Shown: positions 12,562 to 29,410, counted from the stretch's first letter. The stretch: 64,000 nt of DNA from Nitrosopumilus sp. (GCA_965204345.1 OZ241981.1:928001-992000), one strand, 5' to 3'. The notes: generated from the sequence alone by a model not told the origin. A program made the numbers and translations.

Positions 12562-12987
12562 TCACTGCTGGCTCTCAGACATCCCCAATATGGCATCCCA
12601 TATCGGCTTTGGGACAGGCATTACAGACAGTCGTGAAATGCGTACGAGTTCCCAGTCTTTGAATTTTTTCTCTTTTTTCATCTCATCAAGAGTCACAGGG
12701 CGTTTGAATGTTTTTTTGTACTTGACATCTACAACAATAAATCGCTTGACATCTTCTTTTGGGTTCGGATATGGTTTTGAGGTTACTTGCATGATTCCTA
12801 CGGCTTGTCTTTGATCACCGGTATGATAAAAAAAGACGAGATCCCCAGGCCTCATTTCTCTCATGTGCTTTAGTGCTAAATTATTATGGACCCCGTCCCA
12901 CACGGTTGTTTTGTCTTTCTTTAGCTGTTCAAAATTATAGCCCCTAGGACCACTAGGCTCTTGTTTTGCTAGCCAATAATTTACCAT
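12562..12987 (-). CDS. EVE domain protein
   Basis: YWLAKQEP, WDGVHN, MRPGDLVFFYH and RLSVMPV motifs. Confidence 0.92.
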   Translation of the reverse strand: MVNYWLAKQEPSGPRGYNFEQLKKDKTTVWDGVHNNLALKHMREMRPGDLVFFYHTGDQRQAVGIMQVTSKPYPNPKEDVKRFIVVDVKYKKTFKRPVTLDEMKKEKKFKDWELVRISRLSVMPVPKPIWDAILGMSESQQ

Positions 12988-13031
12988 TTCGTCTTTTGGT
13001 AGTATTATCCATGTTTAATGGTTTTTGGAAG

Positions 13032-13201
13032 AGATGTTCCCCGGTTCTGACTCGCACAAGATCATTGGTACATAGCCATACGCCTCCTCGCGTTCTCAAA
13101 CCGGGGTTTGCCCATAATGTAGCACACCTGGGTGAATTAGAAATCACTGGTATCATTACGATCGACTCATCCTAATCCGTCTGCATGCCTGCTCTTGGGC
13201 G
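13032..13201 (-). ncRNA. Putative two-hairpin box H/ACA guide RNA
   Basis: On the minus strand: hairpin 1 GCCCA...TGGGC followed by AAA, and hairpin 2 CCCCGGTT...AACCGGGG followed by A-ACA. Both have internal pockets, and there are K-turn-like TGA/GTGAT motifs. The tract is GC-rich relative to its flanks. Confidence 0.7.
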
Positions 13202-13270
13202 ATTAGATATAGAATTGCTCCCACTAATAACCATTAAAGAAAAAATTATGAAGAATTGTTTGTGGGCAGG

Positions 13271-14917
13271 TTAATTTTTGTTTTTGAGAACGGATTCAGA
13301 TAGGGAGATCTCAAATCCCACTACAGGGACACGAATCTTATAATTCTCGATAATTTTTGAGTTAATTTTTCCAATAATTCCAACTGGAACGTTGTTTAGA
13401 ATGATTGATGCACAGTGACCGTCTTCAAACGTATGACTGGTGGCAGTTTTTGTTTCAATTTTAATTCCAAATCCAGCATTTAGTGCAGATTGGATTATCG
13501 ATTTTATTTCTGTAAAGTTTGCATCCTTGTGTGCACTGATACCAGAAAAATTAATTTTTTCAGATACAGGATTGCCATGTGTGAAAACAGTTCCGGTTTC
13601 ATACATTTTTTGGGGATAGGATTCATGAATGTTTCTGGAGAGATTTTTCAGCAATCCTGGAAGTATAGAATCGCGTAAGATGGTATGCTCTTGACTCTTT
13701 GAGTCAAGTACAGAGATAGCTTTTGCAGAATCCCTGTTAGTCATATCATATAATACATGTTTGCTAGTCAAACTAGAATTCAGTGCTTCTAAAAATCCCA
13801 GACCAATCATAGTTTGATCCAGTGATTTGAGCCTTAGTGAGATTGGATTTGTCTTGCCTATTGTTTGGGAAGGCGATACGACAGGTTCAAGATTTTCAAT
13901 TCCATATCCTAGGGCGACTTCTTCAACTAGGTCCATGGGTCCAAATATATCAAACCGGTATGCAGGAATCGTACAAAGAATGCTAGTTCCCTTGGAGGAT
14001 GCATCCAGCCTAGATTTTTTTAAGGATGAGGTTATTTTAGAGGATGTAAGATTTAACCCTAAGATTTTATTTACCAGTGAGGAAGACACAGTCATTTTTC
14101 TTGTAGACAGCTTTGGTGAGGCGTTTTTTGCACCTGTAATGCTTACAGTTTCCAAGATAAATCCCGCACTTTGTAAAATGGTTGCCACAACTGCAAGCAT
14201 ATCTTCTGCATCCTCTTTGTTGATGCCAGTGACTTCAACGAAGAGATTTTTTGTTTTTGTAGTAACTGTGGTAATGGCAGCGTTGATTATTGGGGGAAAG
14301 GACACCGTATTTTCGTTATTATCAAAAATCAAGGGTACTTGGGAAGATTCCCCAAGTAAGGAACCATAGTCTCTTCCGACATCAGTATCTGCAAGTATTT
14401 CTGAGATAGTCATTTCATGGTCAGAGTTTAGGGGAGTAAATCTGTAATTCCTCTTAGTTGTGGTGTAAACTAGCGGAAATGTGATTTTATCCAAGTCATG
14501 TATGCCAATTGAGGATTTTTTTCTTTTTCGCCCAATTCCAAAATGAAGATCCTCTTGCATGGTCATCAATTGCCTGATGGTATTATCATCAATTTTCCCA
14601 TTTTTTGCAACAATCCCAGTTACAAAAGGTCTAACCCTGGAGACAGTTGGTTTAACATTGATGTGATACTTGGCTGATTTTTTTACGTTGAGCTTGACAG
14701 TACCGGTTTTGATGCCAAACAATCCTTGCAGGCCTAATGCAATTCCAAAATCAGTCGAATAGTCAGGCCTGTTTGGACTGTATTCTATTCTAACCTGATC
14801 ATTATCTTCAGATTCTATATCCAGTCCAAGGAAAGGCAGGGAATCAGAAATCTGCTTTTTTGATACTCTGCCAACCAGTCTTTGGAGACGCTTGTAAGAC
14901 AGCTCAATTACCGGCAT
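13271..14917 (-). CDS. pheT: Phenylalanine--tRNA ligase beta subunit
   Basis: PNRPD, QEDLH, PAYRFDI and DLVEEVA motifs; follows pheS. Confidence 0.95.
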   Translation of the reverse strand: MPVIELSYKRLQRLVGRVSKKQISDSLPFLGLDIESEDNDQVRIEYSPNRPDYSTDFGIALGLQGLFGIKTGTVKLNVKKSAKYHINVKPTVSRVRPFVTGIVAKNGKIDDNTIRQLMTMQEDLHFGIGRKRKKSSIGIHDLDKITFPLVYTTTKRNYRFTPLNSDHEMTISEILADTDVGRDYGSLLGESSQVPLIFDNNENTVSFPPIINAAITTVTTKTKNLFVEVTGINKEDAEDMLAVVATILQSAGFILETVSITGAKNASPKLSTRKMTVSSSLVNKILGLNLTSSKITSSLKKSRLDASSKGTSILCTIPAYRFDIFGPMDLVEEVALGYGIENLEPVVSPSQTIGKTNPISLRLKSLDQTMIGLGFLEALNSSLTSKHVLYDMTNRDSAKAISVLDSKSQEHTILRDSILPGLLKNLSRNIHESYPQKMYETGTVFTHGNPVSEKINFSGISAHKDANFTEIKSIIQSALNAGFGIKIETKTATSHTFEDGHCASIILNNVPVGIIGKINSKIIENYKIRVPVVGFEISLSESVLKNKN

Positions 14918-16299
14918 TTTGTAGTGCTCCTCAGCCATCCAAGATTATTATTGTAAAACTCTCTCACATCGTCTAGATCATGCTTTAGCATTGCAATTCT
15001 TTCAATGCCGCCACCCCAAGCCAAAACAGGCCGTGTAATTCCAAGCGGTTTTGTTACCTCTGGCCTGAAAATCCCCATTCCAAACAATTCAATCCATTTT
15101 CCTAATTTTTCATTGTAAACCATGGTCTGAAGGGAAGGTTCCGTGTATGGAAAAAACGTGGGCCAGAATTTTATTTTTGTAATTCCAATTCGCTTGTAAA
15201 ATTCCCGCTGAATGCCCATTAGATTTCTCAATGACGCATCCTTGCCAACAACGACGCCTTCGATTTGATTAAATTCAACTAGATGCTTGTAGCTTACCTT
15301 TTCGTTCCTAAACACGCGGCCCAAAGAGAAAATTCGTGCCTCATCAGGTTTGGTTTCAGCCAAATGCCTGATGGTGACACAAGTAGTGTGGGTTCTAAGG
15401 ACCATTTTTCTTGCTTCGTTTATGTCCCATTGGTATCTCCAATTCTTTTTGTGGGACTCAGATACTCTTTTAATTTGTTTGGCAGTTCCGATTTTTTTGG
15501 AATTTATTTTATCTAGGTAAAATGTATCTTGCAATTCTCTTGCAGGATGATCCTGCGGGGTAAACAGCGAATCAAAATTCCAAAAACTGGATTGAGTCAT
15601 GTTGCCAAGGATTTCAGAAAAACCAAGCGTAACAAAAATTTCACGGATTTCATCAATCGTGTCTTTAAGGGGATGGGTCCTTGCAACGAAAACCTCTGGA
15701 ACTTTGGCCTCAACATCAATACCTCCAACTGAATCTGAAATTTGGATTGATCTTGCAGCATCAGACAAGGAAATTTCTTTTGTTTTAATGATATCCTCAA
15801 TGATAAAATCAGGTCTTTTCAAAAGCATAGTCAGATCATCGCCATCGTCAATTTTATCCAGGGATATCTTTCCACTGCCAATTATCTTGAGAGTTTTTTC
15901 TCCTGGGAGTTCTGCAGGAGTATCTTTAATAGAAACTTCATCAGATGAGGCTTTAATCCAATTATTTTTTCTAGCCAAACCCATTGAAGGCCCAAATACA
16001 GGGCCCAATTCTTTTTGTAGCACGGACAATTTTTGGGAGCCATCTTTTAGTAAATCTAGCAGCCTTCTTTCAGGCAGCCCTTTCTCAAATGATTCAATAC
16101 CATTTTTGCCCAAGCTGATCACACTTGACTTTGATTCGGCAACAATTACTAGATCCTTTAACTTTAGCCATTCAATTCCTCGTCGTATCTGATCAGGAGA
16201 AAGCCGTGTTGATTTTTCTAATGTTTTGGGAGTTTGTTTTGGACTGTCTCTTAATGATGAGATAATTTTTTTTTCAATTTCATGAAAAACTTGCGACAA
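14908..16299 (-). CDS. pheS: Phenylalanine--tRNA ligase alpha subunit
   Basis: WNFDSLFTPQDHPARELQDTFY, LRTHTT and FPYTEPS motifs. Confidence 0.96.
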   Translation of the reverse strand: MSQVFHEIEKKIISSLRDSPKQTPKTLEKSTRLSPDQIRRGIEWLKLKDLVIVAESKSSVISLGKNGIESFEKGLPERRLLDLLKDGSQKLSVLQKELGPVFGPSMGLARKNNWIKASSDEVSIKDTPAELPGEKTLKIIGSGKISLDKIDDGDDLTMLLKRPDFIIEDIIKTKEISLSDAARSIQISDSVGGIDVEAKVPEVFVARTHPLKDTIDEIREIFVTLGFSEILGNMTQSSFWNFDSLFTPQDHPARELQDTFYLDKINSKKIGTAKQIKRVSESHKKNWRYQWDINEARKMVLRTHTTCVTIRHLAETKPDEARIFSLGRVFRNEKVSYKHLVEFNQIEGVVVGKDASLRNLMGIQREFYKRIGITKIKFWPTFFPYTEPSLQTMVYNEKLGKWIELFGMGIFRPEVTKPLGITRPVLAWGGGIERIAMLKHDLDDVREFYNNNLGWLRSTTKCR

Positions 16300-29286: not shown

Positions 29287-29410
29287 TGGAGGAGGTGGGA
29301 TTTGAACCCACGAACTCCTGAGAGACAGGATCACCCATTATTTGATCTTAAGTCCTGCATGTCCAAAAGCACTCAAAGTGCTTACTTTGGCCAGGCTTGA
29401 TTACTCCTCC
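29287..29410 (-). tRNA. tRNA-Leu(TAA) with two introns (D-arm at 29361-29384; canonical at 29332-29346)
   Basis: GGAGGAG/CTCCTCC acceptor, CAGGA-CT-TAA-GA-TCCTG after splicing, and a long variable arm. The D-arm intron has a BHB (CCAA:TTGG) with an AAGCACT/AGTGCTT stem. Confidence 0.9.

Follow-up and report, generated by a model that had tools for sequence, protein, structure and literature searches.

What is encoded in the gap between pheT, the gene for the phenylalanyl-tRNA synthetase beta chain, and the gene for an EVE-domain protein in Nitrosopumilus sp.? This gap belongs to a 64,000-nucleotide (nt) stretch of DNA (GCA_965204345.1 OZ241981.1:928001-992000), here called the window and numbered from its first letter. 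A first-pass annotation had read the minus strand of positions 13032-13201 as an unannotated H/ACA guide RNA with two hairpins, possibly targeting helix 69 of 23S rRNA. This reading is upheld by covariation, invariant ACA boxes, the GA pairs of two kink-turns (K-turns), a match to rRNA, and the presence of genes for four proteins of the H/ACA ribonucleoprotein (RNP). As judged from its sequence, the element is an unannotated two-hairpin archaeal box H/ACA guide small RNA (sRNA), a well-known RNA class. It is very probable that this sRNA, ~168 nt long, has two guide hairpins that serve, together with Cbf5, two sites of 23S rRNA, one in helix 69 and the other in the peptidyl-transferase centre.

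Conservation and Covariation

A BLASTN search with a 196-nt query gave matches in 127 of 151 family genomes, in 24 of 27 genera. Over query positions ~3-182 these matches were 70-91% identical, a high level for a spacer, and their span supports the extent assigned to the sRNA. From 90 loci taken, five exact duplicates were removed; the remaining 85 distinct sequences were aligned (counts out of 85 below refer to them), and a covariance model (CM R1) was built from the alignment. CM R1 matched 79 of 80 sampled genomes of the family, once each. The window's own genome carries a single copy, and its match (G000:C1:941033-941202) corresponds to window positions 13033-13202. At the class level, matches were obtained in families f2 (3/3), f3 (2/3), f7 (5/10), f12 (2/2), f8 (1/8), and f5 (1/14); none was obtained in f4 (0/9), f9 (0/17), f6 (0/1), f10 (0/2), or f11 (0/1), where the model is so narrow that absence is not implied. 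In the phylum sample, 4 of 130 genomes outside the family matched, weakly, and the misses of this narrow model are no proof of absence.

Several parts of the element are invariant in all 85 homologs: both ACA triplets, the 3′ UGA of both K-turns, GACGGA and CACCCAG of hairpin 1, and G.GUCAG and CCCCGG/CCGGGG. GACGGA is also retained in class- and phylum-level homologs.

The covariation check suggested by the first-pass annotation gave a clear answer. RNAalifold predicted 27 pairs, and compensatory changes occur in 15. In a 32-pair structure tested over the 85 homologs, 91.6% of cells were paired (84.4% in shuffles), 20 pairs had changes on both sides (14.2 in shuffles), and 234 cells showed such changes (80.7 in shuffles); none of 500 shuffles reached any of five covariation measures. 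When partners were slid by 1-3 columns, pairing fell to 33-55% (maximum 55.1%). The structure was partly derived from the same sequences and is favoured in this sliding control, and the compensatory counts remain strong.

Structure of the RNA

All sequence pieces quoted in the first-pass annotation are present on the minus strand of 13032-13201, namely GCCCA/UGGGC, GCAUGC/GUGUGC, GGAUUAGGA/UUCUAAUUC, and UGA..GUGAU in the first half, and CCCCGGUU/AACCGGGG followed by ACA, with pocket strands UUGAGA and GAGUCAG, in the second. The predicted features are as follows (LSU, large-subunit rRNA; K-loop, kink-loop).

13033-13200 (−), whole predicted sRNA, ~168 nt, with the order clamp, hairpin 1, ACA, clamp, hairpin 2, ACA; RNA position 1 is window position 13200
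13196-13200 (−), outer clamp 5′ strand GCCCA, pairing with 13110-13114
13110-13114 (−), outer clamp 3′ strand UGGGC, partner of 13196-13200
13183-13189 (−), hairpin 1 lower stem 5′ strand GGCAUGC; seven pairs, six with both-side changes, 92.9% of cells paired
13121-13127 (−), hairpin 1 lower stem 3′ strand GUGUGCU, partner of 13183-13189
13177-13182 (−), hairpin 1 5′ guide strand AGACGG; GACGG would pair with LSU CCGUC 2688-2692
13128-13135 (−), hairpin 1 3′ guide strand UCACCCAG; ACCCAG would pair with LSU CUGGGU 2677-2682; CACCCAG invariant in 85/85
13136-13176 (−), hairpin 1 upper stem; nine pairs, six with both-side changes, 96.5% paired
13168-13167 and 13145-13144 (−), hairpin 1 K-turn, GA plus GA with an adjoining U.U layer; 3′-strand UGA invariant
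13163-13153 (−), hairpin 1 apical K-loop-like GA-UCGUAAU-GA, long form only
13118-13120 (−), hairpin 1 ACA box, invariant in 85/85, directly 3′ of the lower stem
13099-13106 (−), hairpin 2 lower stem 5′ strand CCCCGGUU; eight pairs, of which six never vary and two have both-side changes
13039-13046 (−), hairpin 2 lower stem 3′ strand AACCGGGG, partner of 13099-13106
13093-13098 (−), hairpin 2 5′ guide strand UGAGAA; its AGA core would pair with LSU UCU 2025-2027
13055-13092 (−), hairpin 2 upper stem CGCGAG/CUUGUG; all six pairs with both-side changes
13086-13085 and 13063-13062 (−), hairpin 2 K-turn, GA, then a 3-nt AAU bulge followed by GA; C-stem GG/CC, with CC..UGA invariant
13047-13054 (−), hairpin 2 3′ guide strand CGAGUCAG; GUCAG would pair with LSU CUGAC 2018-2022; G.GUCAG invariant in 85/85
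13035-13037 (−), hairpin 2 ACA box, invariant in 85/85; a T-rich tail follows in most homologs

Hairpin 2 was drawn correctly in the first-pass annotation (lower stem, pocket, upper stem, and ACA). Hairpin 1 was placed one level too far out, with GCCCA/UGGGC as its stem and AGAGCAG/UACAUUA as its pocket. In our reading of the alignment, GCCCA/UGGGC is an outer clamp that encloses hairpin 1 together with its ACA box, not a lower stem, and UACAUUA holds that box; the pocket is the inner loop formed by AGACGG and UCACCCAG. The clamp has at least 4 base pairs (bp) in 85/85 homologs, including the covarying versions ACCU/AGGU and GCCU/GGGC and the extensions UGCC/GGCA and CGCC/GGCG, and becomes CCAC/GUGG in a distant family. 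The claim that an ANA/ACA box follows each hairpin therefore holds for hairpin 2 as drawn; for hairpin 1, the AAA behind UGGGC is linker, and the box is the invariant ACA at 13120-13118.

The geometry of the two hairpins can be compared with the rules given for productive archaeal guides in PMC4652768: the lower stem has 7-9 bp, 10 stacked layers separate the closing pair from the second G:A, and ACA sits 14-15 nt from that pair. For the K-turn or K-loop, 8-11 layers above the pocket were accepted, with 10 as the optimum. In hairpin 1, the ACA box lies 15 nt from A13176:U13136, and 10 layers separate that pair from the second G:A; if the two basal G pairs are counted as stem, these values become 13 nt and 12 layers. 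Hairpin 1 thus follows the rules (7 bp, 10 layers, 15 nt) if its invariant basal GG/UC belong to the pocket. In hairpin 2, the pair that closes the pocket by covariation, C13092:G13055 (C:G in 80 homologs and U:A in 4), is 17 nt from ACA, and the base opposite U2023 of the LSU is 15 nt away. The 14-16 nt originally claimed from pocket top to ACA is consequently right for the predicted target U and wrong for the covariation-closed pair.

The second GA...GA motif (13153-13163) above the K-turn of hairpin 1 is a possible second site for L7Ae. In short-form genera this motif is lost and a single K-loop is kept.

A further motif, AAGAGCA, occurs in the linker between the clamp and hairpin 1 (13190-13196 (−), RNA positions 5-11). 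It is conserved in the long-form genera and in the phylum-level homolog L159, and is absent from the short-form genera. A search for complements to it gave none in the LSU and just GCUCU(U) in the small-subunit rRNA (SSU).

Predicted rRNA Targets

A single 23S and a single 16S rRNA gene are present in the window's genome, so that the pockets can be compared with the organism's own rRNA. The 13-mer CUGACUCUCUUAA, given in the first-pass annotation as the sequence of the helix 69 region, occurs once in this 23S rRNA (LSU 2018-2030), within GGGAGUAACUCUGACUCUCUUAAGG, i.e., helix 69, and does not occur in the 16S rRNA. The proposed pairing needs correction, as its 7 + 6 contiguous bases leave no unpaired U. 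The guide strands of hairpin 2 are complementary to LSU 2017-2031 without a break; thus, one or two bases must stay out of the duplex. Position n+15 is U2023 and n+17 is U2025, which correspond to E. coli (Escherichia coli) 1921 and 1923, respectively, by alignment of the helix 69 sequence.

The choice between the two is informed by distant homologs. In family f7 (G163), the 3′ guide of hairpin 2 reads UGGUCAG, in which only GUCAG is kept and the two bases 5′ of it cannot both pair; both target sequences are identical in G163 and G012. In the 5′ guide, A13094 is invariant, A13096 is at least 90% conserved, and AGA is retained in f7 as well. The guide bases conserved across the class are GUCAG and AGA, and together with the f7 variation they indicate CUGAC-[U2023 C2024]-UCU as the conserved arrangement. 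U2023 is accordingly predicted as the target of hairpin 2, with U2023-C2024 unpaired, and U2025 is an alternative. Hairpin 2 fits the standard mode in which both strands pair around an unpaired U-N, as CUGAC-[UC]-UCUUAAG in helix 69.

Two other arrangements were considered for this pocket. A 7-bp GAGUCAG:CUGACUC duplex with U2025 as target leaves the 5′ guide with 2 bp, and its 7 bp are lost in f7; it is kept as an alternative only. A pocket directed, as in the Haloferax guide sR-h45, at an unpaired UNUN with E. coli 1915/1917 as targets was rejected, as the 3′ guide is not complementary to GGAGUAAC.

For hairpin 1, the comparison with the 23S rRNA yielded a match in the peptidyl-transferase centre that had been missed by the first-pass annotation. 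CUGGGU[uuaga]CCGUC is the best match, with 6 + 5 bp; its CUGGGU part is unique in the LSU and absent from the SSU. Position n+15 is U2684, the third U of GGGUUUAGAC, followed by A, and it is the same in class- and phylum-level homologs, in which n+14 is C, A, or U. Where n+14 is A, it pairs with U2683, so that U2684 becomes the first free U. U2684 (E. coli 2586) is therefore the predicted target of hairpin 1, and U2683 is an alternative.

Some additional candidates for hairpin 1 were discarded. A target at SSU 735 (CCCGGG-UA-GUC) would rely on a 3 + 2 bp duplex that is interrupted midway by a mismatch. The outer loop of hairpin 1, taken as a guide pocket, gives weak rRNA matches with mismatches, and its 3′ strand contains the invariant ACA. 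A tie at LSU 573-575 came from a scan that let duplexes extend into the stems, which is misleading, and it was superseded by a strict-pocket scan. A comparison of the hairpin 1 site with the orphan pseudouridine (Ψ) 2589 of Thermococcus (PMC6138745) was dropped because the E. coli equivalence could not be derived from that paper.

In both hairpins, the guide bases that would pair with the targets coincide exactly with invariant bases. Helix 69 is an intersubunit bridge. Both predicted target sites are known pseudouridine sites, and the position of E. coli 1921 is a pseudouridine in yeast and human rRNA. The prediction places two pseudouridines in the two most functionally sensitive parts of the LSU, helix 69 and the peptidyl-transferase centre.

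Proteins, Putative Promoter, and Proposed Mechanism

The genome encodes Cbf5 (370 bits), Nop10 (86 bits), Gar1 (31.6 bits), and L7Ae (96 bits), all above curated cut-offs. Upstream of the RNA there is one further feature:

13225-13230 (−), TATA-like A/T block, TTATTA here and TTAATATT in most genera, 25-30 nt upstream of the first G of the clamp

When homologs are anchored on this G, the conserved A/T block spans -30 to -23; at -28 to -25, 0% of rows have C and no more than 1% have G, and T occupies -29 in 91%. A T-rich tail follows the 3′ ACA. The block and the tail would fit an archaeal TATA promoter and a terminator, and the ends of the sRNA were placed from them as putative boundaries.

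We infer that the RNA is transcribed, assembles into an RNP, and directs modification of a particular U at each site. Transcription of the sRNA would probably start at a TATA-type promoter of its own, close behind pheT. In each hairpin, a lower stem, an internal loop serving as the pseudouridylation pocket, and an upper stem whose K-turn would be bound by L7Ae are combined with an ACA that the PUA domain of Cbf5 would recognise. The RNP with Cbf5, Nop10, Gar1, and L7Ae would bind 23S rRNA through both strands of a pocket, so that a single unpaired uridine is held in the Cbf5 active site. For hairpin 2, the duplexes GUCAG:CUGAC and (U)UGAGA:UCUUAA(G) would form on the 3′ strand of helix 69 and present U2023 at 15 nt from ACA. 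For hairpin 1, the duplexes ACCCAG:CUGGGU and GACGG:CCGUC would form in the peptidyl-transferase centre and present U2684, likewise at 15 nt.

Comparison with Known Guide RNAs

The closest described counterpart in layout and targets is sR-h45 of Haloferax volcanii; this likeness is drawn from the published description. According to PMC7075261, the 5′ stem-loop of sR-h45 makes Ψ2605, which is the third U of the same stretch, has an A after it, and lies 15 nt from the box, and its 3′ stem-loop makes Ψ1940 and Ψ1942 in helix 69 from an unpaired UNUN. The two RNAs share a two-hairpin arrangement in which the 5′ hairpin addresses the peptidyl-transferase centre and the 3′ hairpin helix 69, the aim of the 5′ hairpin at the third U of GGGUUUAGAC at 15 nt from the box (a prediction in the present case), and sheared G:A K-turn motifs in both upper stems. 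Both also appear to depend on Cbf5, Nop10, Gar1, and L7Ae, known here from gene presence.

On the other hand, the 3′ hairpin of sR-h45 hits the loop of helix 69 (E. coli 1915 and 1917), whereas that of the present RNA would act on the 3′ strand (E. coli 1921, or 1923); GUCAG would pair with E. coli 1916-1920, so that 1917 is paired. The linker of sR-h45 is 56 nt long with a possible pseudoknot, and it has an AUA box, in contrast to the linker of ~11 nt, the ACA box, and the clamp found here. Moreover, sR-h45 shows standard pairing around UN in its 5′ pocket, whereas 4-5 target bases would be unpaired in this case.

In three of the four phylum-level matches (L157, L159, and L160), the 5′ guide of hairpin 2 is AGAGAGAG. 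It would pair with CUCUCU of helix 69 and fit a loop target like that of sR-h45 (E. coli 1915/1917), which suggests that the target may have shifted within helix 69 in the ammonia oxidisers. A tentative joint reading, possible and still rather unlikely in our estimation, would be an ancient, phylum-wide, pheT-linked, clamped double H/ACA RNA, perhaps linked to sR-h45. In this scenario, E. coli 2586 or 2585 would be modified by the 5′ pocket in a non-standard duplex with 4-5 unpaired target bases, and the 3′ pocket would have been re-aimed in ammonia oxidisers from the helix 69 loop (1915/1917) to the stem (1921).

The canonical H/ACA sRNAs of Pyrococcus, Archaeoglobus, and Pyrobaculum, as described in PMC4652768, resemble the element in their 7-9 bp lower stem, internal guide loop, K-turn or K-loop upper stem, ANA/ACA box 14-16 nt from the pocket, and rRNA targets. 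They differ in that no Rfam model of those families matches the element, which in addition combines a K-turn with an apical K-loop-like motif in hairpin 1 and has an outer clamp around one hairpin and its box. No described H/ACA RNA for ammonia-oxidising archaea was found in searches of the literature outside subscription journals. The element would thus add an H/ACA guide to the ammonia oxidisers, a major archaeal group without an Rfam model.

In yeast, the H/ACA guides for the helix 69 stem are snR3 for Ψ2264 and snR84 for Ψ2266. U2023 lies 6 nt 3′ of the equivalent of E. coli 1915 and by this offset corresponds to yeast 2264. Yeast 2258/2260 are given as the equivalents of E. coli 1915/1917 (PMC7075261). 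Eukaryotic H/ACA snoRNAs differ in having no K-turns and using an H box hinge, and no homology with them is claimed.

Counter-Evidence and Alternative Explanations

Several observations weigh against a two-pocket guide RNA. The two stand-alone checks proposed by the first-pass annotation came out negative. A search with all 4227 Rfam models gave no family at gathering score at the locus, and the best related match, SNORA62 on hairpin 2, reached 14.8 bits (E = 2.2), where 80 would have been required. The 186-nt stretch folded alone does form two hairpins, with a minimum free energy of -55 kcal/mol and z = -1.23, and 26 of 200 shuffles fold equally well or better. As the single-sequence fold is no better than chance and Rfam is below threshold, the case depends on comparison.

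The remaining points concern transcription and targeting. RNA-library contigs of runs X1 and X5, 99%+ identical and assigned to the same strain, cover 12600-12990 and 13410-13600, in the EVE and pheT genes, not the sRNA, and run X13 gave nothing. Contigs of X7 over 13035-13196 show 2-7 differences and have dissimilar flanks, and are assigned to relatives; RNA libraries can also contain DNA. These data are contigs only, so neither presence nor absence of a transcript follows from them. No pseudouridine map of the organism turned up in the literature searches, none of which was aimed at one. In hairpin 2, the upper stem has 8 Watson-Crick/GU layers, not 10, a number obtained only with non-standard A.C and A.G below, and the 5′ guide is weak in GAAAAC variants. 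In a deliberately loose strict-pocket scan, which allowed gaps of 1-6 and offsets of 0-2, the rRNAs were shuffled 200 times by mononucleotide; 5/200 shuffles reached the observed score for hairpin 2 and 11/200 for hairpin 1, modest values when taken singly. Finally, the pairing of hairpin 1 is non-standard, with the five target bases UUAGA unpaired between the duplexes, and two of its target-pairing guide Gs are paired within the free RNA (G:C in 85/85; G:U or G:C in 85/85).

The last point bears on an alternative that we regard as improbable, in which hairpin 2 is the only working guide and hairpin 1 makes no pseudouridine, binding the peptidyl-transferase-centre strand as a folding chaperone or acting as an assembly platform for L7Ae and Cbf5. 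Besides the five unpaired target bases, two intramolecular pairs would have to open, and departures from the standard fold are reported to give non-productive guides (PMC4652768). However, both guide strands of hairpin 1 are invariant in the 85 homologs and retained at class and phylum level, and its n+15 position is the same U as that modified by stem-loop 1 (SL1) of sR-h45. An unpaired 4-nt UNUN target is productive in SL2 of the H. volcanii RNA, where distances of up to 17 nt work (PMC7075261), and hairpin 1 satisfies the 10-layer and 15-nt rules when GG/UC are placed in the pocket. With two working pockets as the preferred interpretation, the class-conserved non-standard pairing of hairpin 1 offers a natural test of how flexible the guide rules are.

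It is far less probable that the element is a structured K-turn RNA without guide function, acting in cis as a pheT 3′-untranslated region or an EVE 5′ leader that binds L7Ae. Its position directly behind pheT in 8 of 9 class-level loci (G012 being the exception) and directly before EVE in this genome would suit such a role, as would the lack of a separate transcript among the RNA-library contigs. The gene downstream, however, changes among class-level loci (EVE, Toprim, ThiI-like, class I W/Y aminoacyl-tRNA synthetase, pterin dehydratase, or YcaO), which makes a leader role unlikely, and a TATA-like block separates pheT from the RNA. A weak hint in the same direction is that the X1 contig over EVE stops at 12990 and does not reach the element. 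A cis-acting role would also leave unexplained the invariant, correctly spaced ACA boxes and the two invariant bipartite rRNA matches.

Two small open reading frames (ORFs) overlap the element in this genome, at 12953-13156 (−) (67 amino acids) and 12966-13175 (+) (69 amino acids). Both calls are spurious, as had been suspected in the first-pass annotation: neither matches any family in a Pfam search, and start and open frame are kept in 15/85 homologs for the sense ORF and 5/85 for the antisense ORF. That the region codes for either of them, or merely holds chance spacer hairpins, is scarcely credible, since the open frames and the non-significant single-sequence fold in this genome are set against strong base-pair covariation, the poor retention of the ORFs and their lack of a Pfam match, and an element length (149-174 nt) that varies in steps not multiples of three. 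Removal of the two calls improves the annotation.

Genomic Context and Additional Observations

The sRNA sits on the minus strand between the pheT stop and the start of the EVE gene. Both flanking genes named in the first-pass annotation were confirmed by Pfam:

13271-14938 (−), pheT (phenylalanyl-tRNA synthetase beta chain), upstream neighbour on the same strand; PF17759, PF03484, PF03483
12562-12987 (−), EVE-domain protein gene, downstream neighbour; PF01878, E = 6e-41

In 8 of the 9 class-level loci, pheT is upstream on the same strand as well, and two of the four phylum-level matches have pheT on one side and a class I W/Y tRNA synthetase gene on the other. This deep linkage to pheT provides a simple route to the same RNA in other archaea.

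The arrangement of the RNA varies in more distant relatives. In sister families of the order, one locus (L133, G230) seemingly retains hairpin 2 and a stub only, and two others (L138, G228; L140, G239) have two adjacent model matches each; the RNA in these genomes may be split, duplicated, or expanded. In L160 (G313, ~2201-2381), hairpin 2 also lies within a long outer helix, AGGUGAAGUGA ... UCACUUCACCU, and each hairpin is thus clamped.

Two contig ends were also noted. The X1 contig that covers EVE is identical to the window and ends at 12990, 3 nt upstream of the ATG; as contig evidence, this is a hint that EVE has a leaderless mRNA of its own, distinct from the sRNA. One X7 contig has a loose end at 13109 with adapter-like letters beside the match; this end is an artefact of the contig, not an RNA end.

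Elsewhere in the window, a tRNA match at 29287-29410 (−) spans 124 nt against a 71-position model, with a low score of 34.1 bits, and is probably an intron-containing tRNA gene.

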